Below, piece by piece: positions 3,646-62,931 of a stretch of 64,000 bases of DNA. Every line of letters begins with the position of its first letter. The stretch's first letter is position 1. The position numbers and the translations under genes are program-made. The stretch comes from a bacterium. GTDB taxonomy: Bacteria > UBA9089 > JASEGY01. The stretch spans positions 4,087-68,086 of the forward strand of contig JBFMHI010000002.1 of the NCBI GenBank assembly GCA_040753085.1, given 5' to 3'. A model generated the notes under the pieces. That model was not told the origin of the DNA. It ran no database searches and worked only from the letters and a program-made list of their open reading frames with translations.

Positions 3646-4410
3646 GTGCCACGACCTTCTTTTATCCACATTTACAACCAAGGGGCCAGTTCGGCTCTAA
3701 ATATTCATCTCATGGCTCAATACCTTAGAGAGAAAACCGGCCTGGATGTTGATATCCGAGGGAATCTTATTCCCACCCACGGCGACACCCAAAAATTAGT
3801 GGCTGAAGAGTTTGCTGGGGCAAAGATTGTTGACCCGCAGAAGAAGGGGCTAAATCCAGACCCGCTGTCGGCTGAGATTGAATATGAATCCAGGCTGCTT
3901 TCTGCTCAAAAGCCTTCCGGACTGCTTTATGATGGTTTCTGCGTGCAAGAGATATTTCGCAAGCTGATTCCTCAAATAGAACATAATCTAACCCATGCGC
4001 ATATCATATTTACTTCCCGGCTCTTTGGGACTTATGAAGACAACCGTTACCATGCCAGGATAGCTGTCTTTGGCATTCCTTCTATTATTTCTACTACCGG
4101 AATAGTTGAGGCGCCGGCCAAACCAAGAGAGTTTTACTTAAAAAAGGAGCTGGGGCAGGATCTAGCCAGGCTCAAAGAGGAATTTAAGGGCAGATTTATT
4201 GACTATGATGACCCGAGGCTGACTGAGGTGATGAAGGGGTATGTGATGCAGGCCCTTTTCTATCATGCCTTCGGTAATCCTTTTTGTGACGACCCTGAGT
4301 GCAGGCTTTACAATGCTCATTGGCAAGAGGAAGTAATCAAAGCCCAGCTTGAGGCCGAATATGAATTCTGTCCCCTTCATGAGCAGGCTTTATGGGAGGC
4401 AGCCAATTGA
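3646..4410 (+). CDS. hypothetical protein with a C-terminal Cys/His-rich motif (FCDDPECRLYNAHW...EFCPLHE); may continue the SWIM gene after frameshifts
   Basis: 254-aa ORF with no motif I can assign; it overlaps the 3519-3728 ORF in another frame, and the true start is uncertain (possibly M at 3712). Confidence 0.4.
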   Translation: MPRPSFIHIYNQGASSALNIHLMAQYLREKTGLDVDIRGNLIPTHGDTQKLVAEEFAGAKIVDPQKKGLNPDPLSAEIEYESRLLSAQKPSGLLYDGFCVQEIFRKLIPQIEHNLTHAHIIFTSRLFGTYEDNRYHARIAVFGIPSIISTTGIVEAPAKPREFYLKKELGQDLARLKEEFKGRFIDYDDPRLTEVMKGYVMQALFYHAFGNPFCDDPECRLYNAHWQEEVIKAQLEAEYEFCPLHEQALWEAAN

Positions 4411-10310: not shown

Positions 10311-10414
10311 GTAACTATTCAGGTGGATAGGCTGAAGGCTTTTAGAAATAAATACGGAGGGCATATTATTGGACTTCAGCCTTCAGTCTTCAGCCTATCT
10401 ACCTGAGTAGATAC
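10311..10414. repeat. hairpin element of the CTGAAGG heptamer family (imperfect termini GTAACTATTCAGG / CCTGAGTAGATAC)
   Basis: Inverted heptamer arrays gctgaagg / cttcagccttcagtcttcagcc; related copies at 46010-46137 and 54783-54851. Confidence 0.6.
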
Positions 10415-13300: not shown

Positions 13301-13918
13301 TCACCAATATCTTCCTACGTAATCTTCAAACAGCCTGCTTACCTCTTCCGGATTTACACGGTCATCTCTCTCTTCAATTACATCCGCCAACTTTTGCTTA
13401 AACTCTTCTTCCTCGGTCTCAGTCATACCCCGGTCAGGATACCTTTGTCTAAGTTCACTGGCCTCCTGGCTGATCTCCTCCAATCTCTTTTCAAACCGCT
13501 CTTTCCTCCTTTTGGCGATTTCCCCTATTTTAAAAGGTATCTCGACATATTTCCTCATCAACCTGTCTTTCTCTTGTTCGGAAAAAGAAGAACCAGGCCC
13601 TCTCAGGATATCTTCCAGTCTCTCCCTGAGCCGCCTGAATCCGGCTTCCTTCCGGTACGGGCTAATATCCCTTTGTCCCAATTTCTCGGCTTCCTGGGCC
13701 AGCTCTTCCATCTCCTCCTTCATCGCCGAAACGGCCCGGGATGATCTTTCTCCTTGCCACCCCTCTTTCCTCGCGACATCCTCTTCTCTCCCGGTCTCTA
13801 TGGTAGAGTCTCCGCTGGCCGATGAAGGGGGAGGCATTTCCTCTCTGGCGCAACTCAGGGTCAAAAGTAGAATTAGTAACCATAAGCCGGTGGTCTTTTT
13901 TCTCTTTCTGGAAAACAC
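13301..13918 (-). CDS. hypothetical highly charged lipoprotein (coiled-coil)
   Basis: Signal peptide with LTLSC lipobox; E/K/R-rich helical sequence. Confidence 0.5.
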   Translation of the reverse strand: MFSRKRKKTTGLWLLILLLTLSCAREEMPPPSSASGDSTIETGREEDVARKEGWQGERSSRAVSAMKEEMEELAQEAEKLGQRDISPYRKEAGFRRLRERLEDILRGPGSSFSEQEKDRLMRKYVEIPFKIGEIAKRRKERFEKRLEEISQEASELRQRYPDRGMTETEEEEFKQKLADVIEERDDRVNPEEVSRLFEDYVGRYW

Positions 13919-13923
13919 GAATT

Positions 13924-14038
13924 AATCGCGAATCGCGGATCGCGAATTGCGAATTAAAAAATAGATTCGCGATTCGCAATTCGAGATTCGCGATTCGATA
14001 TGAATGCTTCCTACATTTTCTTCATAACTTTATATTCT
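13924..14038. repeat. ATTCGCG/AATCGCG heptamer array followed by an approximately 80-bp unit (copy 1)
   Basis: aatcgcgaatcgcggatcgcgaattgcgaatt, then aaaaaatagattcgcgattcgcaattcgagattcgcgattcgatatgaatgcttcc...cattttcttcataacttt. Confidence 0.7.
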
Positions 14039-14797: not shown

Positions 14798-14861
14798 CTT
14801 ACTCTTAAGCAAGGTGATATGTGTTGGGGATAATAGGAAAGGGGATATTTATGTCTCTGAA

Positions 14862-15070
14862 ATACTCGATACTCGATACTCGATGCTCGATACTCGATGT
14901 TCGATACTGGATATTGGATCCTTTACTAGCCTCGAGCATCGAGGATCGAGCATCGAGCATCGAGGATCGAGGATCGAGCATCGAGGATCGAGCATCGAGC
15001 ATCGAGGATCGAGGATCGAGGATCGAGGATCGAGCATCGAGGATCGAGGATCGAGCATCGAGCATCCAGC
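14862..15070. repeat. CATCGAG-family heptamer hairpin (left array CTCGATR about 6 units, centre GGATCCTTTACTAGCC, right array about 20 units of CATCGAG/GATCGAG)
   Basis: Directly visible tandem heptamers; it lacks the outer GTAACCGTTCA termini seen at other copies. Confidence 0.7.
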
Positions 15071-15073
15071 CTA

Positions 15074-15301
15074 ATGGCAAAGAGAGAAGAAATGAAAGAA
15101 AAGATAGATAGGTTAAAGAAGTTTTTAAAGGAAGTCTGGTTGGAAGTAACCCCTTCTCATGGCAAGGTGGCCTGGCCTTCTCGAAAAATGATCGTGGGGT
15201 CAACTACTGTTGTCTTTATTGCCGTGGCGATCATCAGTGTTTATATCGGTCTGGTAGATGTCATTCTATCCAAGACCATAAATTTTATTATTAGCAGGTG
15301 A
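15074..15301 (+). CDS. secE: preprotein translocase subunit SecE
   Basis: 75 aa with a single C-terminal TM helix and the KVxWPSRKM motif; position before nusG. Confidence 0.8.
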   Translation: MAKREEMKEKIDRLKKFLKEVWLEVTPSHGKVAWPSRKMIVGSTTVVFIAVAIISVYIGLVDVILSKTINFIISR

Positions 15302-16007: not shown

Positions 16008-16181
16008 AGCCTCTATATAGTAGCCTTACCTAGCGAAACCACAACATATTGTGTTTAGGTGTTTAAAAGTTAGCTAAAATTCCTAAAAAACGGCTTTCTA
16101 TGCAACCTATAAAAGGAGACGAACCACAATATATTGTGTTCTGTAAGCTTCAAAATCAATATGTGGTGGCTGAGTAGTTAC
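16008..16181. mobile_element. MITE-like hairpin element with TIR GTAACTACTCAGCC / GGCTGAGTAGTTAC and a perfect 8-bp TSD ATTTATTG
   Basis: ATTTATTG at 16000-16007 and 16182-16189; internal palindromic units aaccacaacatattgtgtt and aaccacaatatattgtgtt. Confidence 0.7.
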
Positions 16182-16188
16182 ATTTATT

Positions 16189-16337
16189 GTAACCGTTCAT
16201 CACATGATGCTTGATCCTCGATGCTCGATGCTCGATCCTCGATGCTGGTAAAGGATCCAGTATCCAGGATCGAGCATCGAGCATCGAGCATCGAGCATCG
16301 AGGTTGTGTCTTTGTGGCTTAGTGGCTGAACGGTTAC
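16189..16337. mobile_element. CATCGAG-family MITE (TIR GTAACCGTTCA / TGAACGGTTAC, inverted heptamer arrays around centre GGTAAAGGATCCAGTATCCAGG)
   Basis: gtaaccgttcatcacatgatg...ctcgatg arrays...catcgag arrays...ggctgaacggttac; inserted directly beside the previous element. Confidence 0.7.
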
Positions 16338-17349: not shown

Positions 17350-17425
17350 CTATTAGGGCGATGTTCATCCTTTTGGCCATTTGTCGAATCGCTAATCTTG
17401 AATTGCGAATCGCCAATCTATCTTT

Positions 17426-17559
17426 GTAACCGTTCAGCACATGATGCTGGATGCTCGATGCTCGATCTTCGATGCTGGTAAAGGATTCAGTATCCAGGAT
17501 CGAGCATCCAGCATCGAGGATCGAGGATCGAGTTTGTGCCTTAGGGGCTGAACGCTTAC
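17426..17559. mobile_element. CATCGAG-family MITE (TIR GTAACCGTTCA / TGAACGCTTAC) nested between ATTCGCG heptamer arrays at 17385-17418 and 17572-17612
   Basis: gtaaccgttcagcacatgatgctggatgctcgatgctcgatcttcgatgctggtaaaggattcagtatccaggatcgagcatcc...ggctgaacgcttac, with flanks aattgcgaatcgccaatct and aattcgcaattcgcgatccgcgattcgcgatt. Confidence 0.7.
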
Positions 17560-17664
17560 CTAAGTCTTTTAATTCGCAATTCGCGATCCGCGATTCGCGA
17601 TTAATCCGTAAGCGGCCCCAACGATGAACAAGGCCACAATATTGTTAATGGTTAAGGAGGCAAG

Positions 17665-25900: not shown

Positions 25901-27291
25901 GGGGGGGAAATATGCTGATCAGAAAGATTCTTAAAGAATATACCCTGGCCCCGGGAAGCAAGATTATGGTATTTGATGGATTATGGATTAATATGGGTGA
26001 AGTCGTGGCTGAAACAAGTGAAGGAGAAAGTATTAAGGCGGAAGTAGCCGGAATAGGTCGAATAACGGAAGAAGGCAAGGTCTTAATAGAGGCCAGGGAG
26101 AGGGAGATTCATCTTCGAACCGGCACGAAGATTTATGTCCAACCAAACACCTTTGTCGAGGCCGGACAGATCATCGCTGAATTTGATCCTTACAATGAGC
26201 TTATTCTGACTGAAACCACTGGTGAAGCCAGATTCAAAGATATTATCAAAGGTAGAACCCTACGGGAGGAGCTGGATGAAAATACCGGTCTTTTTAACCG
26301 GGTCGTGGTTGAAGACAGGGAAGAGGAATTACAGCCTTCGGTGGATATCATCAAAGAGGATGGAAAGGCCGTTAACTACATCTTGCCTCATGGAGCCAGG
26401 TTAGTGGTTCAGGACGGACAAAAATTGACGGCTGGAGATACATTAGCCAAGTTCCCTCAAGAATTGTCTAAGACTAAGGACATTACCGGTGGATTGCCCC
26501 GCGTGGCTGAGCTTTTTGAAACCAGGTGTCCCAAGGATAATGCGGTGATAGCTGAAATTGACGGTGTCATCGAGTTTAAACCAGCCGCGGGAGGCACAAG
26601 GACGGTGGTGATTAGAAATAAGGCCACTAATACCACCAGAGAATATTATATATCGGTAGGTAAACATTTGAAGGTTCATGAAGGGGATGAGGTTAAAGCC
26701 GGAGATCAGTTGATTGAAGGCCCTATAGATCCGCACGATATCCTTCGGATTAAAGGAGATTATGCCCTGCAGCAATATCTTTTAAACGAGGTCCAGGAAG
26801 TTTATAAACTTCAGGGGGTGGATATTAATGATAAACATATTGAAGTTATCGTTCGTCAGATGTTGAGACGGGTAGAGATAACTTCAGCCGGCGATACGGA
26901 TTTTCTCGTGGGGGAACATATGGATAAGTTCCGCTTTATGGAGGAGAATAAACGGGTGGTCGCTCAAGGAGGCACACCGGCTCAGGCCAGCCCGCTTCTT
27001 TTGGGGATAACGAAGGCCTCATTAGCTACTGATTCTTTTATTTCAGCGGCCTCATTCCAGGAGACTACCAGGGTTTTAACGGAAGCGGCCATTAAAGGCA
27101 GAACGGATGACTTGCTTGGTTTGAAAGAAAATGTAATTATTGGCAGACTTGTTCCGGCCGGGACAGGAATGCCGATGTATAAAGACAGGCAATTTACTTT
27201 TAACCGATTAGGGGAAGAGACTGTTTCGGAGGAGGAACATCCACTTACGGCTGGTTCATTACCGATAACCGAATCACCGATTACCGATTAG
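22999..27291 (+). CDS. rpoC: DNA-directed RNA polymerase subunit beta' (TTG start)
   Basis: 1430 aa; zinc-binding [19 protein letters not shown]...CDRCG and the catalytic NADFDGD motif. Confidence 0.97.
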
Positions 27292-27469: not shown

Positions 27470-28456
27470 ATGTTCAAGATGGCTAATAATAGACAGATGA
27501 CATTATTAAAGGCAGAAGAGGAGCATATCAGGAGGGTTCTTCCCTTACTCCTAAAGAAAGATGACAGGTTTAGAACCGAGGTCTCTATTATCCTAAGCGA
27601 GGTCTTTGCCAAGAAGGATGAGCTAAGGATAGTTATAGAGGAGATTCAGAAAAGCAGAGAAGAGACAAGCCGAAGGTTTGAGGAGATGCGAGAAGAGACA
27701 AGCCGAAGGTTTGAGGAGATGCGAGAAGAGACAAACCGAAGGTTTGAGGAGATGCGAGAAGAGACAAACCGAAGGTTTGAGGAGATGCGAGAAGAGACAA
27801 ACCGAAGGTTTGAGGAGATGAACCAAAGGTTTGAAGAACATCGCGAAGAGACAAACCGAAGGTTTGAGGAGATGAACCGAAGGTTTGAAGAACATTGCGA
27901 AGAGACAAACCGAAGGTTTGAGGAGATGAACCGAAGGTTTGAAGAACATCGCGAAGAGACAAATAAGAGGTTTGAGGCAGTAGAAACCCAACTTCAGGAA
28001 CAAACAAAGCAGCTAAGGGAGCATTCAGTCCAACTTCAGGAACAATCAAGGGAAATAAGAAGGATGGGGATAAGCATCAGAACCGTAGGGGCAAGGTGGG
28101 GAATATTTGCTGAAGGGACAATCCGAAATACCTTAAAGGAGCTACTCCTCAAAAAGCTTAAAGTAAAAGAGGTATCCTCGTGGAAGGTAATGGATAAAGA
28201 GGGAAAGGTAGGTATTCCTAATTCAGAGGTAGAGGTAGACATCCTTATCCAGAATGAGAAGCATTTTCTAATAGAGATAAAATCCTCTGCCGATGAAGAA
28301 AATGTAGAGAGGTTTTATAAAATAGGAAATTTTTATTATGAGAAGACAAAGATTAAGCCAAATCTTATCTTTGTAGCGGTGGAGATGAACAAAAAGGGAG
28401 AAGACCTCTGCAAAAAACTAGATATCCAGCTTATAACCTACGAGGATTTGGACTGA
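27470..28456 (+). CDS. tandem-repeat coiled-coil protein with a C-terminal PD-(D/E)XK (restriction-endonuclease-like) domain, possibly DUF3782-like
   Basis: About nine 11-aa repeats REETNRRFEEM, then a C-terminal region with EVEVDILIQNEKHFLIEIKSS (D..E.K pattern) and LIFVAVEM; inserted between rpoC and rpsL. Confidence 0.65.
   Translation: MFKMANNRQMTLLKAEEEHIRRVLPLLLKKDDRFRTEVSIILSEVFAKKDELRIVIEEIQKSREETSRRFEEMREETSRRFEEMREETNRRFEEMREETNRRFEEMREETNRRFEEMNQRFEEHREETNRRFEEMNRRFEEHCEETNRRFEEMNRRFEEHREETNKRFEAVETQLQEQTKQLREHSVQLQEQSREIRRMGISIRTVGARWGIFAEGTIRNTLKELLLKKLKVKEVSSWKVMDKEGKVGIPNSEVEVDILIQNEKHFLIEIKSSADEENVERFYKIGNFYYEKTKIKPNLIFVAVEMNKKGEDLCKKLDIQLITYEDLD
27655..27985 (+). repeat. array of about nine 33-nt tandem repeats (gaagagacaagccgaaggtttgaggagatgcga) inside the CDS
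   Basis: Directly visible near-identical 33-mers; they produce the spurious antisense ORFs 27623-28003 and 27633-28049. Confidence 0.85.
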
Positions 28457-32723: not shown

Positions 32724-32811
32724 GCTCGATGCTCGATGCTCGATGCTGGGTAAAGGATCCCGTATCCAGGATCGAGCATCCAGCATCGAGGATCGAGCAT
32801 CGAGGATCGAG
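32724..32811. repeat. CATCGAG-family heptamer hairpin (no outer TIR) directly after the fusA stop
   Basis: gctcgatgctcgatgctcgatgctgggtaaaggatcccgtatccaggatcgagcatccagcatcgaggatcgagcatcgaggatcgag. Confidence 0.7.
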
Positions 32812-32821
32812 AGGAGTTGTT

Positions 32822-33130
32822 GTGGTTTCCCAAAAGATTCGTATTAAGCTTAATGCCTATGACCATAGGATCCTGGATCAGTCGGCGGGTGAAATTGTTT
32901 CTACGGCTAATCGGACCGGCGCCAGGGTGGCCGGCCCTATCCCTCTGCCGACAAAGATAAGTCGATATACGGTCTTAAGATCCCCTCACGTGGATAAAAA
33001 GTCAAGGGAACAATTTGAAATGCGCATCCACAAAAGGGTCTTGGATATCCTGGAGCCGACTGAAGATACCATCGCGGCTTTAATGAAGTTAGAGCTTCCG
33101 GCAGGAGTCGAGGTAGAGATAAAGCTCTAA
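32822..33130 (+). CDS. rpsJ: 30S ribosomal protein S10 (GTG start assumed)
   Basis: ...[43 protein letters not shown]... matches S10. The track ORF start at 32729 reads through the heptamer repeat; RBS gaggag at 32811. Confidence 0.85.
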
Positions 33131-33215: not shown

Positions 33216-33473
33216 CGACCTGTACGGTTAGGTTGTAGACTACTGACGCTGAAAGCGTTGAATTTTAAATAGCCGTAGATGCAATCTCCGGAAACAAATC
33301 GCCACGCTCGACCCTGCAAGGGTCGAATATTATCCATCGCCTAGAATTCAACCCTTTCAGGGTTGAGATGTTCGTAGCTGTTTTACCTTCCGCAGGTTTC
33401 ACCTGTGGTTATGTAAAATTCAAACCTTTCAGGTTTGAAGGGAATTGCTTGTAATCTCTAACCGCACAGGTCG
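33216..33473. mobile_element. 258-bp MITE-like element (TIR CGACCTGTACGGTTA / TAACCGCACAGGTCG), internally a chain of short hairpins, perfect 8-bp TSD AAATAATT; second copy at 50696-50949
   Basis: AAATAATT at 33208-33215 and 33474-33481; internal hairpins gacgctGAAAgcgtc, cgaccctGCAAgggtcg, caaccctTTCAgggttg, caaaccTTTCAggtttg, ccgcaggtttcacctgtgg. The two copies are about 90% identical. Confidence 0.75.
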
Positions 33474-33570
33474 AAATAATTCCTGAGAAGGGCTGAAATC
33501 GGGGTGCCTCTTTTGGTTTGGCTGAATATTTAGATGGGGGAGTGCAGGATAAAAAACCATGAATAAACAA

Positions 33571-33600
33571 TCCGAAATCCGAAATCCGAAATCCGAAATG
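33571..33600. repeat. AATCCGA heptamer array (x4) immediately upstream of / overlapping the rplC start
   Basis: caatccgaaatccgaaatccgaaatccgaaatg. Confidence 0.7.
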
Positions 33601-34230
33601 CGATTAGGCATTTTAGGGAAAAAAATCGGGATGACTCAGATATTTGGAGAGGCCCAGCAGCTTATTCCAGTAACTGTTATTGAGACTAAGCCTTGTGTAG
33701 TAACCCAGGTTAAAAGCCGGGAGTCGGAGGGATATAATGCGGTCCAACTGGGCTTTGAAAAACAAAAAGAAGGGCTGGTGGCCAAACCCCTTTTAGGCCG
33801 GTTCAAGAAGGTTAAGATACCTCCTATGAAATATTTGAGAGAATTCAGGTTGGATGATATTTCGGGGCACGAAGTTGGCCAGGAAGTGAGAGTAGAAAGT
33901 CTCTTTAAGCCGGGAGAATATGTGGATGTCACCGGAACATCTAAAGGAAAAGGATTTGCGGGGGTGGTTAAGCGATGGGGTTTTAAAGGCGGGAAGGCCA
34001 GCCATGGTTCTATGTTTCACCGGGCGCCCGGTTCTATTGGCGCTTCAGCGGCTCCGTCCAGGGTCTTTAAAGGGACCAGGCTTCCAGGACGGATGGGGGG
34101 AAAACAGAGCACCATTCAAAATCTAGAGATAGTCAAGGTAGAGGCAGAGAAAAATTTGCTTTTAGTTAAAGGAGCGGCCCCCGGGAAAAAGGGGGAACTT
34201 CTGGTTATCAGGAAAGCGAAGAAGAGGTAA
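33598..34230 (+). CDS. rplC: 50S ribosomal protein L3 (start taken at the MRLGILGKKIGMTQIF Met)
   Basis: The canonical L3 N-terminus begins at the Met at 33598. The track start at 33559 would add an extension encoded by the heptamer array. Confidence 0.85.
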   Translation: MRLGILGKKIGMTQIFGEAQQLIPVTVIETKPCVVTQVKSRESEGYNAVQLGFEKQKEGLVAKPLLGRFKKVKIPPMKYLREFRLDDISGHEVGQEVRVESLFKPGEYVDVTGTSKGKGFAGVVKRWGFKGGKASHGSMFHRAPGSIGASAAPSRVFKGTRLPGRMGGKQSTIQNLEIVKVEAEKNLLLVKGAAPGKKGELLVIRKAKKR

Positions 34231-36406: not shown

Positions 36407-36467
36407 AGGGCGGATTGCGGATTGCGGATTGAAGATTTTAAATCCGAAATCAGAAATCCGAAATCCG
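36407..36467. repeat. CGGATTG / AATCCGA heptamer inverted arrays in the rpsS-rplV spacer
   Basis: ggattgcggattgcggattgaagattttaaatccgaaatcagaaatccgaaatccgcaat. Confidence 0.7.
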
Positions 36468-36486
36468 CAATAATCAGGAGACTTAG

Positions 36487-37574: not shown

Positions 37575-37592
37575 TTAGCCATTAACAATTAT

Positions 37593-37754
37593 GTAACCGT
37601 TCATCCCATAAGGCTGGATGCTGGATGCTCGATTCTCGATGTTCGATCCTCGATGCTGGATACTGGATCCTTTACCAGCATCGAGGATCGAACATCGAGA
37701 ATCGAGCATCGAGCATCGAGGATCGAGTTTGTGCCTTAGGGGCTGAACGCTTAC
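37593..37754. mobile_element. CATCGAG-family MITE with TIR GTAACCGTTCA / TGAACGCTTAC and a perfect 8-bp TSD ACAATTAT
   Basis: ACAATTAT at 37585-37592 and 37755-37762; inverted heptamer arrays around centre GGATACTGGATCCTTTACCAGC. Confidence 0.8.
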
Positions 37755-37787
37755 ACAATTATTAATTGTTAATGGTAAATTATAATT

Positions 37788-38504: not shown

Positions 38505-38771
38505 ATGAACAAACAATCCGAAATCCAGCAGCGTGGTAAAAGAAAAGTAAAGGAAGGAGAGGTGCTTTCCAATCGGATGGATAAGACGGTGGTTGTTTCT
38601 GTAGAGAGGCTAATCAGGCATCCCTTGTATGGCAAGGTGGTTAAAAAAAGGAGCAAATTCTATGCTCACGATGAGACCAACCAATGTCAAGTAGGAGATA
38701 AAGTAAAAATTATGGAAACAAGACCCCTTTCCAGGCTTAAAAGATGGCGGGTTATTGAAAGGATGAATTAA
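38505..38771 (+). CDS. rpsQ: 30S ribosomal protein S17
   Basis: ...[48 protein letters not shown]... The 5' end (atgaacaaacaatccgaaatcc) resembles the heptamer-bearing starts at 33559 and 61537. Confidence 0.9.
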
Positions 38772-44452: not shown

Positions 44453-44463
44453 TTAATAATTGG

Positions 44464-44597
44464 TAACCGTTCATCCCATGAGGCTAGAGGCTCGATCCTC
44501 GATGCTCGATGCTGGTAAAGGATCCAGTATCCAGGATCGAGCATCGAAGATCGAGCATCGAGTGGGTGTTTTTGTGCCTTACGGGCTGAACGCTTAT
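44464..44597. mobile_element. CATCGAG-family MITE (TIR GTAACCGTTCA / TGAACGCTTAT) with a perfect 8-bp TSD AATAATTG
   Basis: AATAATTG at 44456-44463 and 44598-44605. Confidence 0.8.
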
Positions 44598-48718: not shown

Positions 48719-48730
48719 TTAACAATTATC

Positions 48731-48866
48731 GTAACCGTTCATCACATGATGCTCGATGCTCGATCCTGGATGCTCGATGCTCGATGACGGGATCCTTTTT
48801 TATCATCGAGGATCGAGCTTCGAGGATCGAGTTGGTGTCCTTGTGCCTGAGGGGCTGAACGTTTAC
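48731..48866. mobile_element. CATCGAG-family MITE (TIR GTAACCGTTCA / TGAACGTTTAC), TSD CAATTATC / CAATTATT (7 of 8)
   Basis: gtaaccgttcatcacatgatgctcgatgctcgatcctggatgctcgatgctcgatgacgggatccttttttatcatcgaggatcgagcttcgaggatcgag...ggctgaacgtttac. Confidence 0.75.
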
Positions 48867-50695: not shown

Positions 50696-50949
50696 GGTTA
50701 AGGTTGTAGACTACTACTGACGCTGAAAGCGTCAAATTTTAAATAGCCGTAGGTGCAAGCTACGGAAGATAAATACATCCGCAACGCTCGACCCTGCAAG
50801 GGTCGAATTATCCATCACATAGAATTCAACCCTTTCAGGGTTGAGCTGTGGTAGATGCTTCGTTTCCGCAGGTTTTACCTGTGGTTATGTAAAATTCAAA
50901 CCTTTCAGGTTTGAGGAGAATTGCTTGTAATTCCTAACCGTACGGGTCG
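50696..50949. mobile_element. second copy of the approximately 258-bp structured MITE (TIR CGACCTGTACGGTTA / TAACCGTACGGGTCG)
   Basis: About 90% identical to 33216-33473, including all internal hairpins. Confidence 0.75.
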
Positions 50950-50957
50950 AAATTTTT

Positions 50958-51245
50958 CGACCTGTGAAATAGGTTTATACAAATATCCCCCAATTAGGGT
51001 AAGAAAGAGAATAAACAGATCGCTCCTCTGGAGCTAATTTGTTATGAGAGATATATTCTACAAACATGTCGCTCCTCTGGAGCTAACCTGAATAAAGCTC
51101 CGTAGGAGAGCAATCTGTTTGTAGTATTTCGCAAAAGCAATATATTTGCAGCTCCGTAGGAGCGACCTGTTTTTAGTAGTAGAGCTTGAATATCTATGTC
51201 TATGGGAAGTTTCTTGCATTTTATTTAAATCTATTTCACAGGTCG
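50958..51245. mobile_element. 288-bp MITE (20-bp TIR CGACCTGTGAAATAGGTTTA / TAAATCTATTTCACAGGTCG) with a perfect 8-bp TSD AAATTTTT; the internal GCTCC-nnn-GGAGC hairpin units (GTCGCTCCTACGGAGC and its variant GCTCCAGAGGAGC) are arranged as a long palindrome; inverted copy at 62578-62866
   Basis: AAATTTTT at 50950-50957 and 51246-51253; the element is inserted immediately after the terminus of the previous element. Confidence 0.8.
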
Positions 51246-51261
51246 AAATTTTTCTTCACGG

Positions 51262-52086: not shown

Positions 52087-52930
52087 GCGCCCCCATGCGG
52101 ATGCCTTTAACAAAGAATCCTTGAAAGGCAAAAAAGATAATCATCATCGGCACGGCCGCCACGACTGCTCCAGCCATAAGCAGGCCATAGTCTAACACCT
52201 GTTTACTTTGCAGGGTGGCCAGACCGACAGGGAGGGTATAGCGAGAGGCTGAATTAAGGACAATCAGCGGCCAGAGGAAGGCATTCCAGTAAGTGATAAA
52301 AGTAAAAATCCCCAAAGCTCCTAAGACCGGTTTCGAGAGAGGCAGTATAATATGCCGGTAAATACCGGCTTCTGAGCAGCCGTCCATTCTGGCGGCATCT
52401 TCCAGGTCCCGCGGTAGGCCTTCCATATACTGCTTCATCAGGAATATTCCGAAAGGACCGGCCAAACCGGGTAAAATAACCGCCCAGAGAGAATCAAGCA
52501 GATGCAGTTTGCTCATCATTAAATAAAGAGGCACTACTATCACCTGTCCCGGAATCATCATTAAAGATATAATCGCCCAGAAGAGGATGGTCTTGCCAGG
52601 AAAATCCTTGCGGGCAAAGGCATAGCCGGCCAGGGAATCAAAGAGAAGGTGAAAAAAGGTGACGGCCAGGCTGATTAAAGTAGAGTTAAAAAGCCAGCGC
52701 AATATCTCGGAATGGCTGAAGAGGTCTTTAAAGTTCATCCAGGTGTAGTCCCGGCCAAGTAAATCAGGGGGCACCTGGGTGATACTCTCCGGATGAGTAA
52801 AGGCCGTGACAAACATCCAGACCAGGGGAAAAAGAAAAATGGCTGCTCCGGCAAACAATAAGGCGTAAAGGCCGATTTCGAGTTTCGAGTTGGGGGCAGC
52901 CGCTTGCGGGTCGTCGAGTTTCGGGTTCAT
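52076..52930 (-). CDS. carbohydrate-type ABC transporter permease (orphan; its N-terminal codons are encoded by a GAGTTTC heptamer array)
   Basis: EAA loop [22 protein letters not shown]; 6 TM helices. The track N-terminus [20 protein letters not shown] is translated from heptamer repeats at 52880-52925, so the true start is uncertain. Confidence 0.75.
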
Positions 52931-54851: not shown

Positions 54852-55340
54852 CATATCTCCTTGGATTACTCCTTCTATCAACCTAAAGGCTTCAGCGGCT
54901 GTTTGATTCTTGATCTCTATTCGCTCACCAGTGAAATTAAACTTCCTTATAGTAACTTTTCCTTTAAAGGAAAGGGCGATGTAGACCAGACCAACCGGTT
55001 TTTCTTTAGTCCCTCCTGAGGGCCCGGCGATACCGGTCACCCCTAAGCCCACATCGGTCTTCAATAGCCGGGCTATCCCAAGGGCCATCGCTCTGGCTGT
55101 CTCCCGGCTCACGGCTCCGAACCGCTGAATTACCTCAGGGTTAACACCCAGAATTTTCATTTTGACCTCGTTACTATAGGCCACCACCCCCCCTATAAAG
55201 TAATTCGAACTGCCCGGAACATTGGTAAATTGATGCGAGATTAAACCACCGCTGCATGATTCAGCTATCCCGATGGTTAATTGTCGCTCACTTAGAATCT
55301 GGCTGACACGCCTTGCGATTGCGGATGGCGGATTTTTCAT
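54810..55340 (-). CDS. pncC: CinA C-terminal domain protein / nicotinamide-nucleotide amidohydrolase PncC (C-terminal 14 aa encoded by an inserted MITE)
   Basis: LTIGIAESCSGGLISHQFT and GVTGIAGP motifs. Confidence 0.85.
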   Translation of the reverse strand: MKNPPSAIARRVSQILSERQLTIGIAESCSGGLISHQFTNVPGSSNYFIGGVVAYSNEVKMKILGVNPEVIQRFGAVSRETARAMALGIARLLKTDVGLGVTGIAGPSGGTKEKPVGLVYIALSFKGKVTIRKFNFTGERIEIKNQTAAEAFRLIEGVIQGDMVTTQVNKLKLEGF

Positions 55341-55355
55341 TTTGGATTCCAGATG

Positions 55356-56219: not shown

Positions 56220-56378
56220 GTTTACCCCCTTTATCTATTACCCAATATATCATAGATATAATCTTATTTCAAGACATTTTTATCTTGAGCCATCTGTGAA
56301 GAATGAAAATCTTGACTTCGCCCCTGATTTATGTTATGATAAGCGTTGAAAATGGAGAGCAGTGTCAAAAGATATACG

Positions 56379-56467
56379 GTAACCGTTCATCCCTCGATGC
56401 TGGATCCCCGATGCTCGATGCTCGAGCATCGGGGATCGAGTTTGTGCCTTAGTGGCTGAACGCTTAC
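56379..56467. mobile_element. short CATCGAG-family MITE (TIR GTAACCGTTCA / TGAACGCTTAC)
   Basis: gtaaccgttcatccctcgatgctggatccccgatgctcgatgctcgagcatcggggatcgagtttgtgccttagtggctgaacgcttac. Confidence 0.7.
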
Positions 56468-56531
56468 GAAATATGAAAGTGGATATGTTAGGCTCTTGTT
56501 TCTCTGGAAGGACAAGTGAAGATTAGGCCCT

Positions 56532-60595: not shown

Positions 60596-61537
60596 TCAGG
60601 TAGCTGAGAGGTGTCCACCCCAGCGGAGCTTTGTTTTCAAGACCTGGTAAAAACTCCTGGCCTCGGGCTTGACTAAATAAATACACTCTTTGGCCTTTCC
60701 GGCGGTGATTCTGTCGCCTGACTTTAATGGATAGCCTGACTGGCCATCCTGGGTGAGCATCATCTCTCCTCGCGGTCCGGAGGAGACAACCAGGGATATC
60801 TCCTCATCAGGGCCAATGATGACAGGTCGCAGGGCCAGGGTATGAGGGCAAATAGGCGTGGCCATCAAGACCTCTAATCCGGGATTCAAGATTGGCCCAC
60901 CAGCCGAGAGGGAGTAAGCCGTAGAGCCGGTGGGGGTGGCCAGGATCATCCCGTCGGCTTCAAAGTTGGCTACTAATTCATCAGCAATAAAGAGGGTAAT
61001 GTTGATAGACCTGGCTAATGCCCCGCAGGTGATGACCACATCGTTTAAGGCCTTAAAGGCGGCGGCTTCAGTTCCTTCTCTCTCCACCTTCGCCTCCAGC
61101 ATCATCCTGGGCTCCAGTTCAAAGCGGTGGGCTAAGATGGACTCGATGGCAGGAAAAAGTTCCTCCTGGGTTACTTCGGTTAGAAAACCCAGGCTGCCTA
61201 AATTCACCGCCAGAATAGGCACGCCTTCAGGCCAGGCCAGTTGGGCCGTGTGAAGAAGGGTGCCATCTCCGCCCAGGGCGATAAGTAGGTCGGCCTCAGC
61301 TCCCAAATTAGCTGAAACAGAAATGGCTTTCTTGGCCAGGTCTAAAGACGCCCCTGGTTCGATAAGGGCCTTAATGTCCTTCTTATCCAGCCAGTCAATC
61401 AATTTAGAGGCCACTACTGCCGCCCCTGGCCGGTAAGGATTGACTACCAAACCTATCTTCTTTATGGCGGATGGCGCACCCACTTTGTGGGTAGCCGGGA
61501 TTGCGGATTGCGGATTGCGGATTGCGGATTGTTTCAT
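60596..61537 (-). CDS. nadK: NAD+ kinase (true start probably downstream of the repeat-encoded N-terminus)
   Basis: GGDGTLL motif and NAD-kinase fold. The track N-terminus MKQSAIRNPQSAIP is translated from a CAATCCG heptamer array. Confidence 0.85.
   Translation of the reverse strand: MKQSAIRNPQSAIPATHKVGAPSAIKKIGLVVNPYRPGAAVVASKLIDWLDKKDIKALIEPGASLDLAKKAISVSANLGAEADLLIALGGDGTLLHTAQLAWPEGVPILAVNLGSLGFLTEVTQEELFPAIESILAHRFELEPRMMLEAKVEREGTEAAAFKALNDVVITCGALARSINITLFIADELVANFEADGMILATPTGSTAYSLSAGGPILNPGLEVLMATPICPHTLALRPVIIGPDEEISLVVSSGPRGEMMLTQDGQSGYPLKSGDRITAGKAKECIYLVKPEARSFYQVLKTKLRWGGHLSAT
61493..61532. repeat. CGGATTG heptamer array (x5) at the 5' end of nadK
   Basis: gggattgcggattgcggattgcggattgcggattg. 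Confidence 0.7.
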
Positions 61538-62405: not shown

Positions 62406-62577
62406 GTAACCGTTCAGCCACCAAGGCACGAAGACACGAAGGGAAAAAAATATGTGTCTTAGAGAGCAGTAGAGCCATAGAGCAGCCGTTCTGGAACTTT
62501 CAGAAAAATCTCTAACTACTGCTCTGCTGCTCTACTGCTCTATTTTTGTGTCTTTGTGTCTTTGTGGCTGAACACTT
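62406..62577. mobile_element. GTGTCTT-family MITE (TIR GTAACCGTTCAGCCAC / GTGGCTGAACACTTAC) with a nested AGAGCAG/CTGCTCT heptamer hairpin
   Basis: Two nested inverted heptamer arrays (cacgaagacacgaag/gtgtctttgtgtctttgtgg and agagcagtagagccatagagcag/ctgctctgctgctctactgctct); the right terminus is interrupted by the next element. Confidence 0.7.
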
Positions 62578-62866
62578 ACGACCTGTGAAATAGGTTTAAA
62601 TAAAATGCAAGAAATTTCCCATAGACATAGATATTCAAGCTCTACTCCTACTAAAAACAGGTCGCTCCTACGGAGCTGCAAATATATGCTTTTGCGAAAT
62701 ACTACAAACAGATTGCTCCTACGGAGCTTTATTCAGGTTAGCTCCAGAGGAGCGACATGTTTGTAGAATATATCTCTCATAACAAATTAGCTCCAGAGGA
62801 GCGATCTGTTTATTCTCTTTCTTACCCTAATTGGGGGATATTTGTATAAACCTATTTCACAGGTCG
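62578..62866. mobile_element. inverted copy of the 288-bp MITE (TIR CGACCTGTGAAATAGGTTTA) with a perfect 8-bp TSD AACACTTA, inserted into the terminus of the preceding element
   Basis: AACACTTA at 62570-62577 and 62867-62874; the sequence is the reverse complement of 50958-51245 at about 95% identity. Confidence 0.8.
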
Positions 62867-62931
62867 AACACTTACAACTCATTCTATTTTATCCGTGCTA
62901 ATCCGTGTTAATCAGTGGCTGAATAGTTACG

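Follow-up and report, generated by a model that had tools for sequence, protein, structure and literature searches.

Heptameric simple sequence repeats (SSRs) are over-represented in bacteria and cluster near start codons (PMC4679880; PMC4692102; 10.1101/2022.06.06.494920). In the TAACTGA repeats of marine Beggiatoaceae, some Cyanobacteria and Bacteroidetes (MacGregor 2015, PMC4679880), each genome carries numerous arrays of tandem 7-nt units, mostly within a few nucleotides of starts, including those of ribosomal-protein genes, and often in place of a recognisable Shine-Dalgarno (SD) sequence. The proposed role of these repeats is post-transcriptional or translational, and a few of them are translated at protein ends (PMC4679880). 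In Xanthomonas, arrays of GGGAATC include inverted pairs (PMC4692102). Separately, CA repeats downstream of the start codon are described as enhancers of translation in E. coli, on leaderless as well as leadered mRNAs (PMC9031893 and PMC3879156, citing Martin-Farmer & Janssen 1999), and ACA- or CA-rich motifs act as transferable enhancers (PMC9031893, PMC3879156). Here, a 64-kb stretch of bacterial DNA (positions 4,087 to 68,086 of contig JBFMHI010000002.1; "the window" below always means this whole stretch) was analysed, which is 45.8% G+C and holds the rpoBC, str, S10, spc and alpha ribosomal-protein gene clusters. Like the TAACTGA genomes, the window carries tandem 7-nt units at many loci. 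TAACTGA, however, has stops in all forward frames and must stay ahead of the start codon, whereas the unit AATCCGM (M being A or C) is free of stops in every frame. It is found beyond the start, where it is translated, and opens rplC, rpsQ and nadK with an in-frame leader. On balance, we read these leaders as fixed, translated microsatellites of the 5′ coding region that are probably kept for a role at the level of the mRNA.

The 5′ end of rplC, the gene for ribosomal protein L3 (33559–34230, + strand, called as an open-reading frame (ORF) with a Pfam Ribosomal_L3 match), reads ATGAATAAACAATCCGAAATCCGAAATCCGAAATCCGAAATG at 33559–33600 and includes a leader of 13 codons. An ATG at 33559–33561, in frame and 39 nt before the canonical start, is followed at 33562–33603 by six phased 7-nt units (AATAAAC, four copies of AATCCGA, and AATGCGA) encoding NKQSEIRNPKSEMR, an array that Tandem Repeats Finder scored at 5.0 copies with a 96% match. 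The canonical, ancestral L3 start, the ATG at 33598–33600, lies within the last unit, AATGCGA, and MRLGILGKK follows from it. L3 homologues in other lineages begin M-x-LGILGKK, and the public L3 annotation (P0001, 100% identical) is a protein of 210 amino acids that begins at this canonical start. The anti-SD duplex energy was -8.2 kcal/mol before ATG 33559, where an SD-like purine tract (GGGGGAG ... AGGA, 33536–33549) is present, compared to +0.1 before ATG 33598, ahead of which the sequence is pure repeat with no SD sequence. Translation of rplC probably begins at ATG 33559. Since the leader runs in frame into the gene and no stop codon separates the two, it is not a separate upstream ORF or a leader-peptide attenuator of the kind found in ribosomal-protein operons.

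Comparison with the nearest relative of the window, the metagenome-assembled genome (MAG) Yes70-08 (GCA_030019105.1; 75% L3 identity), argues for the same start. In Yes70-08, rplC starts ATGAATAAACAATCCGAAATCCAAAATCCGAAATCCGAAATC CAA TTA GGC, with a leader likewise of 39 nt, and the upstream ATG is its sole usable start because an ATC stands where the canonical L3 start codon would be; the public annotation resorts to that ATC to obtain its 210-residue L3. The ATG-plus-array leaders of the two genomes are identical at 42 of 45 nt (93%), compared to 78% for the gene body and 64% for third codon positions, and just 3% of 45-nt segments in the rplC gene body match this conservation. The rpsJ–rplC spacers (~ 400 nt) of the two genomes could not be aligned, identity starting ~ 4 nt before the upstream ATG. 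In the next lineage (L010, 66% L3 identity), rplC has no repeat and starts GTG TCT TTA GGG. As a separate observation on this locus, the spacer in the window is unusually long at 428 nt and holds a ~ 250-nt repeated element (33239–33482) that recurs beyond rplQ (50713–50958) at 91% identity. The Yes70-08 spacer holds repeats unrelated to these, and for that reason the spacer looks like an insertion hotspot.

An earlier note, made from the sequence of the window alone, had claimed that a near-identical leader opens rpsQ, and this was borne out: rplC and rpsQ share the arrangement ATG, AAYAAAC, (AATCCGA)n. The gene for ribosomal protein S17 (38505–38771, +; Pfam Ribosomal_S17 domain from residue 18) begins at 38505 with ATGAACAAACAATCCGAAATCC, also given as ATGAACAAACAATCCGAAATCCAG, in which the ATG is followed by AACAAAC AATCCGA AATCCAG (leader 38505–38528, encoding MNKQSEIQ). 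The SD region AAGGGTGA gave an anti-SD duplex of -8.3 kcal/mol, with pairing that stops 4 nt short of the ATG. The gene offers no alternative start codon ahead of its conserved RKVKEGEV. S17 of the lineage with 66% L3 identity begins MLNRGRRKVKTGEV and is six residues shorter, with no repeat.

The claim that nadK, the NAD kinase gene (60596–61537, - strand; Pfam NAD_kinase domain from residue 28), begins with repeat-encoded residues was also confirmed. Its DNA opens ATGAAACAATCCGCAATCCGCAATCCGCAATCCGCAATCC at 61537, and its leader (61496–61537) consists of ATG AAAC, four copies of AATCCGC (CAATCCG in the earlier note) and AATCCCG, encoding MKQSAIRNPQSAIP. This leader is a variant, one codon shorter and with three mismatches in the 22-mer scan described below; Tandem Repeats Finder scored its array at 4.9 copies with a 100% match. 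GGGAG stands 8 nt ahead of the ATG (duplex energy -7.4 kcal/mol), and in Yes70-08 AGGAG stands 5 nt before the corresponding upstream ATG. Alignment with relatives and outgroups placed the ancestral nadK start at 61463–61465, 24 codons into the ORF, where the codon is now ATA. The same sequence, ATA AAG AAG ATA GG, is present at the old start in the window and at loci L011 and L012. NadK of the window, of a Logan assembly (87% identity to the window) and of Yes70-08 (79%) has the N-terminus MKQSAIRNPQSAIPATHKVGAPSAI-KKIGL, MNHQFAIRNPPSAI-KKIGL and MRKSEIRNPKSEI-KKIGL, respectively, from in-frame repeat leaders of 24, 13 and 12 codons, and each of the three has ATA at the old start position. 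Outgroup NadK proteins (at most 54% identity) have no leader and begin MKK(V/I)G at the old start position, e.g., MKKVGI, and an outgroup locus is without any array. The unit itself differs, AATCCGC in the window versus AATCCGA in Yes70-08, so that the nadK tract has evolved in unit and in length with the frame always kept. Since the leaders are translated and kept in frame across relatives, we regard them as a fixed feature, not a switch or an annotation error.

Two further features of nadK were noted. The leader in the window carries at 61483–61495 (-) an extra small, hairpin-forming insert relative to the relatives, ACCCACAAAGTGGGT, which accounts for part of its greater length, and NadK of Yes70-08, with 316 residues compared to 302 in the closest relative, has a C-terminal extension encoded by an AGGTTCA array of 4.7 copies (L011 2634–2666). 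When the nadK N-terminus was searched exhaustively with HMMER, just two repeat-filled ORFs were retrieved.

The recurrence of one leader on unrelated genes, which had been called odd at the outset, exceeds chance. The 22-mer ATGAAYAAACAATCCGMAATCC has three matches in the window at three or fewer mismatches and none in any of 100 shuffles. An exact scan for it across 185,579 species genomes (596 Gb), for which ~ 0.3 chance matches were expected, returned eight stretches representing seven distinct loci, L007 being the same contig as L001. In Yes70-08 the leader opens rplC, hypE and hflX, and in Acidobacteriota it stands at the head of an FAD-binding oxidoreductase gene with orthologues in four MAGs (MNKQSAIRNPQSAIAIVGAGPAG and variants); at the loci of both groups the ATG reads in frame into a recognisable protein. 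A match in Weeksella (L005) was rejected, as it has no array and fits the number of matches expected by chance. The Acidobacteriota oxidoreductase genes have a conserved TATAAT 14–17 nt before the ATG and no SD sequence, which implies a near-leaderless mRNA. They also hold an internal in-frame array of the CAAAAAT/CAAAATC type (L003 ~ 2580–2660, L004 ~ 2620–2650) that encodes a lysine- and glutamine-rich loop, …KSQISNLRFQTKDQKSKIKNQKSK…. At a divergently transcribed neighbour gene of the metallo-beta-lactamase (MBL) fold in the same four Acidobacteriota, an AATCCGM array abuts the ATG from the 5′ side, an arrangement that matches the one kept at the old rplC start (AATGCGA). AATCCGM arrays stand in the sense, A+C-rich orientation in all seven independent genes.

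Neither the metagenome contigs of JGI nor viral contigs contained the 22-mer, while AATCCGM arrays as such are common in metagenomes, where at least 120 loci have four or more perfect units. Within long open frames, 25 arrays were in sense and 6 in antisense orientation, and an apparent general sense bias at gene starts (91 versus 60 with a long downstream open frame) was dropped, as it stems from these within-frame arrays. A profile search with the 14-residue leader peptide, padded to the 40-residue minimum, gave 22 candidates, 13 of them at E ≤ 10, all spurious short ORFs over intergenic arrays; the word index used in this search cannot find N-terminal tags.

The physical properties of the tract are consistent with a role in the mRNA. 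The leaders encode hydrophilic tails of 6–24 residues of the type MNKQSEIRNPKSEI, and the tract starts 10 nt after an SD-preceded ATG. A+C content at positions +4 to +45 was 0.69–0.71 in four leaders, compared to a mean of 0.52 and a maximum of 0.64 in 46 other genes. Folding of 42-nt tracts gave -0.8 kcal/mol for (AATCCGA)6 and -1.6 kcal/mol for (AATCCGC)6, compared to -15.4 for GATGCTC and -25.1 for AATCGCG arrays. No conserved or significant RNA fold was detected around the leaders (z of -0.3 to +1.1 against shuffles), and Rfam contains no known RNA matching any leader site. Several other candidate properties were considered and dropped: complementarity between the array and TCGG(G)AT in the coding sequences of L3 and S17 was within chance, programmed frameshifting had no slippery motif, complementarity of the unit to the 3′ end of 16S rRNA was just 4 nt, and tract lengths (39, 36, 39 and 72 nt) proved to be multiples of 3 nt and not of the 21 nt that three units would require.

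A stepwise origin can be proposed. The array would first have been located in the 5′ untranslated region (UTR), directly next to the old start codon. As the unit is stop-free in every frame, initiation could then have shifted to an ATG at the array's 5′ edge, and the old ATG would afterwards have decayed, becoming ATC in the rplC of Yes70-08 and ATA in the nadK of three genomes. The UTR-abutting state is, on this reading, still visible in rplC, where the old ATG lies in the last unit, and at the Acidobacteriota MBL-fold gene. In its present position the tract would keep the first ~ 45 nt after the AUG unstructured and CA-rich, an aid to initiation at the mRNA level, while the encoded peptide may be a tolerated disordered tail. 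By analogy with the E. coli enhancers, a CA-rich open initiation region is probably the likeliest reason for retention.

Several results weigh against this account. The folding energy of the whole initiation region (-25 to +35) is unexceptional compared to other genes. The enhancer role is an analogy only and, taken by itself, leaves unexplained the identical AAYAAAC first unit on unrelated genes; the shared unit suggests that the leaders have one origin or that whole modules were exchanged between genes, and leaves room for a trans-acting reader of the repeat. In the window, the canonical ATG of rplC is intact, such that dual or downstream initiation may occur there, and the high nucleotide identity of the rplC leader could partly reflect homogenisation of the repeat and not purifying selection, since all three substitutions between the window and Yes70-08 are non-synonymous. 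Among 141 metagenome AATCCGM arrays, 28 at ORF 5′ ends were in sense and 25 in antisense orientation, and none of the 141 had the ATGAAYAAAC flank. The association with start codons is therefore lineage- or gene-specific.

Other start sites in the window carry related arrays. The cinA/pncC gene (-), whose Pfam CinA domain begins at residue 7, starts with ATG 55340 inside five phased units at 55314–55348 (AATCCAA AATGAAA AATCCGC CATCCGC AATCGCA), a fifth case beyond those listed in the earlier note. Between rpsS and rplV, an inverted pair of GCGGATT (three copies) and AAATCCG (four copies) occupies 36410–36468 (+), and its sense arm, AAATCCG at 36440–36468, stops 8 nt short of the rplV SD sequence. 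All five independent AATCCGM arrays in the window (rplC, rpsQ, nadK, cinA and the rplV 5′ UTR) are in sense orientation and within 45 nt of a start. The proposal that heptamer arrays open genes as N-terminal extensions had also included an ABC permease, and while the sequence supports it for rplC, rpsQ and nadK, the permease is the weakest case. Its 5′ end (52876–52930, -) has two short, degenerate CGAAACT patches of ~ 2 units each (MNPKLDD...NSKLEI; TTTCGAG in 2.3 copies at 52876–52891), though its A+C content at +4 to +45, 0.71, exceeds that of all 46 background genes.

These start-site arrays lie among many others. Tandem Repeats Finder and a period-7 scan identified ~ 30 period-7 arrays in the 64 kb, belonging to several unit families. 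Most are of the GATGCTC/GAGCATC family and form the two arms of palindromic MITE/REP-like elements of 150–170 nt with conserved termini GTAACCGTTCA ... TGAACGCTTAC, of which there are at least seven intergenic copies, some inside ribosomal-protein operons. GATGCTC/GAGCATC elements are located at 14842–15101, 16180–16334, 17417–17564, 37584–37759, 44454–44594, 48722–48863 and 56370–56472, and for one of them a folding energy of -109 kcal/mol was obtained (z = -14.8). At coding starts, by contrast, the arrays are solitary, in sense orientation, and built solely of the most A+C-rich units, AATCCGA, AATCCGC or CGAAACT, each 0.71 A+C. Between the window and Yes70-08, the rpsL–rpsG spacer differs in its array (AGTTTCG/CGAAACT versus TACCTAC), as does the fusA–rpsJ spacer (GCTCGAT/ATCGAGC versus GAAATTA). 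AATCCGM is the only heptamer family common to both genomes, and it stands at gene starts in both. That the intergenic arrays differ while the AATCCGM leaders are shared suggests that the leaders are under constraint, whereas ordinary arrays turn over.

Other repeats and ORFs in the window were recorded in the course of this analysis. A sequence of ~ 300 nt occurs twice in inverted orientation (50946–51254 and 62570–62878, ~ 11.3 kb apart, arms 98% and 93% complementary), each copy bearing a small ORF (MQE(T/I)SHRHRYSSS...). Short repeated elements, 88–96% identical, lie at 10311–10396/46012–46097, 13957–14031/14223–14297 and 58826–58880/62876–62930; they begin GTAAC(T/C)(A/G)TTCAG and each has its own array of TCAGCCT, GATTCGC or the 10-mer CACGGATTAA, which suggests a family of array-bearing mini-elements with shared termini. 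Between rpoC and rpsL, a 328-residue ORF (27470–28456) has DUF3782 and PD-(D/E)XK nuclease domains, and its N-terminal half consists of 33/54-nt in-frame tandem repeats (27657–28002). The last ~ 11 codons of rpoC (27258–27291) are a degenerate ATTACCG array with the stop codon inside it. As most heptamer units lack a stop in any frame, they give rise to spurious or over-extended ORF calls (32729–33130, 13662–13979, 14821–15111 and others); the rpsJ call is overextended by 31 codons through the fusA–rpsJ hairpin, the real start being the GTG after a conserved GAGGAG near 32821.

Against this background of repeats, the leaders could be neutral passengers. Arrays would arise by slippage or insertion throughout the genome and become fixed in frame wherever an N-terminus tolerates a tail; they would have no function, and their conservation would reflect frame constraint, ancestry and homogenisation. 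This explanation, which we consider rather unlikely, draws on the ~ 30 arrays of many unit types in 64 kb and on the arrays that also encode C-terminal tails (RpoC here, NadK in Yes70-08) and the internal loops of the Acidobacteriota oxidoreductases. It is also consistent with the wholly non-synonymous substitutions in the rplC leader, the varying length and unit of the nadK leaders, and the absence of a general start-codon link among the metagenome arrays. It accounts poorly for an rplC leader that equals the best-conserved 3% of the L3 gene beside a scrambled spacer, and a frameshift-prone tract in essential genes would be expected to be purged unless favoured. Neither the use of A+C-rich units alone, in sense orientation alone, in seven of seven genes, nor the recurrence of the AAYAAAC first unit on unrelated genes in two distant lineages is expected of passengers.

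The recurrence of one sequence-specific leader on unrelated genes, and its strong conservation at the nucleotide level, would also fit a shared recognition platform, in which (AAUCCGM)n is bound by a trans-acting factor (S1, Csp, a CsrA-like protein or a (KCGGAUU)n RNA) that co-regulates rplC, rpsQ, nadK, hflX and hypE. Complementary GCGGATT arrays are present on transcribed strands, regulator binding has been proposed for TAACTGA repeats at Beggiatoaceae starts (PMC4679880) and for Nostoc heptamers (10.1101/2022.06.06.494920), and the small RNA GcvB targets CA-rich enhancers in enterobacteria (PMC3879156). Several observations make such a platform doubtful, however: no candidate factor was identified, the leader-bearing genes have no obvious physiology in common, nadK orthologues differ in unit between the window (AATCCGC) and Yes70-08 (AATCCGA), and the one array of complementary sequence that the window holds is itself base-paired within a local hairpin. 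An equally doubtful reading is that ATG-AAY-AAA-(CAATCCG)n forms a portable "start-codon cassette" of ~ 45 nt, combining a new start with an unstructured CA-rich tract, which would have spread by array recombination or insertion to unrelated essential genes across distant lineages. Such a cassette may in addition mark its genes as members of a translational regulon, recognised by a repeat-specific RNA-binding factor or by antisense repeat RNAs.

A further possibility is that the array is an untranslated 5′-UTR element and the start is mis-called, with initiation at the downstream canonical codon. The rplC of the window does retain ATG 33598, which the public annotation uses, and arrays that abut starts from the 5′ side do exist, at the MBL-fold gene of the four Acidobacteriota and at rplV here. 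This explanation appears improbable, as ATG 33598 has no preceding SD sequence, the orthologous codon in Yes70-08 is ATC, three genomes have ATA at the old nadK start, rpsQ lacks another start farther downstream, and the frame is kept in every case. For the same reasons, the suggestion that the leaders are annotation noise fails for most cases; public annotation, if anything, appears to err in the opposite direction, trimming the N-terminus to a 210-residue L3 and, in Yes70-08, invoking an ATC start.

Phase variation had also been suggested, in which slippage by one 7-nt unit moves the upstream ATG into and out of frame. The unit length is indeed not a multiple of three, the tracts are near-perfect or perfect (96–100% match over five copies), and an rplC allele with one additional unit in the window would end its shifted frame at a TAG overlapping the canonical ATG, from which rescue by translational coupling is conceivable, although this is speculation from sequence. 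L3, S17 and NadK are essential in bacteria generally. A contingency switch in such single-copy housekeeping genes is very improbable, given that the rplC tract has the same length in two species with 75% L3 identity, that all three nadK alleles are in frame, and that in Yes70-08, where neither rplC nor nadK has a back-up start, an essential gene would be null in the OFF state. No OFF (out-of-frame) allele of rplC or nadK was seen in this between-species comparison, and exact-protein look-ups with L3 (both starts, P0001) and L14 found no contigs from the same species; low-level slippage within a population may nevertheless occur.

The retention of the leaders matters because a non-triplet microsatellite in the first codons of essential genes is an expected mutational hazard, and yet it has hardly changed between species with 75% L3 identity, and one leader opens several unrelated genes. 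If the tract is a natural downstream enhancer or insulator, it would give a function to the long-noted excess of heptamers in bacteria, show how start codons migrate, and provide a compact natural expression tag. In practical terms, homology-guided annotation trims such N-termini and even invokes an ATC start, and stop-free repeats yield spurious ORFs.

Compared with described systems, the leaders combine features that have been reported apart. The enhancers of E. coli and Salmonella (PMC9031893, PMC3879156) share with them an A+C-rich, unstructured tract just after or near the AUG; those enhancers are synthetic (CA)n inserts or short natural ACA motifs, whereas the leaders are natural heptamer microsatellites, whose enhancer activity would follow by analogy. 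Phase-variable SSR loci of Haemophilus, Neisseria and Campylobacter (PMC12721329) likewise have a non-triplet repeat in the 5′ coding region. Those loci, however, are dispensable genes, typically for surface, host-interaction or restriction-modification functions, that vary between ON and OFF, while the genes here encode L3, S17, NadK, HflX, HypE and CinA (Pfam), with tracts that are constant (rplC, 39 nt) or changed in frame only. The STRR of Calothrix and Nostoc, TTTTGAA and GGGGATT of Nostoc PCC 7120 and GGGAATC of Xanthomonas are heptameric SSRs over-represented in intergenic DNA, as in the window. Some form inverted pairs, some lie near or overlap starts, and their length and sequence turn over between relatives (PMC4692102; 10.1101/2022.06.06.494920), but they are intergenic and G-rich or AT-rich, and none is described as a conserved in-frame leader of essential genes.

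Among start-associated heptamers, the window shows the tandem units, the proximity to starts and the fixed orientation of that class. The latter two hold in the window and not in the broad metagenome sample, where the count at ORF 5′ ends was 28 versus 25. The arrays depart from the class in being translated instead of lying untranslated upstream, and in their unit, AATCCGM, which differs from TAACTGA, TTTTGAA, GGGGATT and GGGAATC; six repeat-specific DNA and peptide strings had no match in the literature text searched. A conserved ATG-plus-array leader shared across species is reported here and not for TAACTGA (PMC4679880). What is new, therefore, is a stop-free unit downstream of a functional start, translated as a conserved leader of ~ 45 nt on essential genes, with the same leader present in a second phylum.

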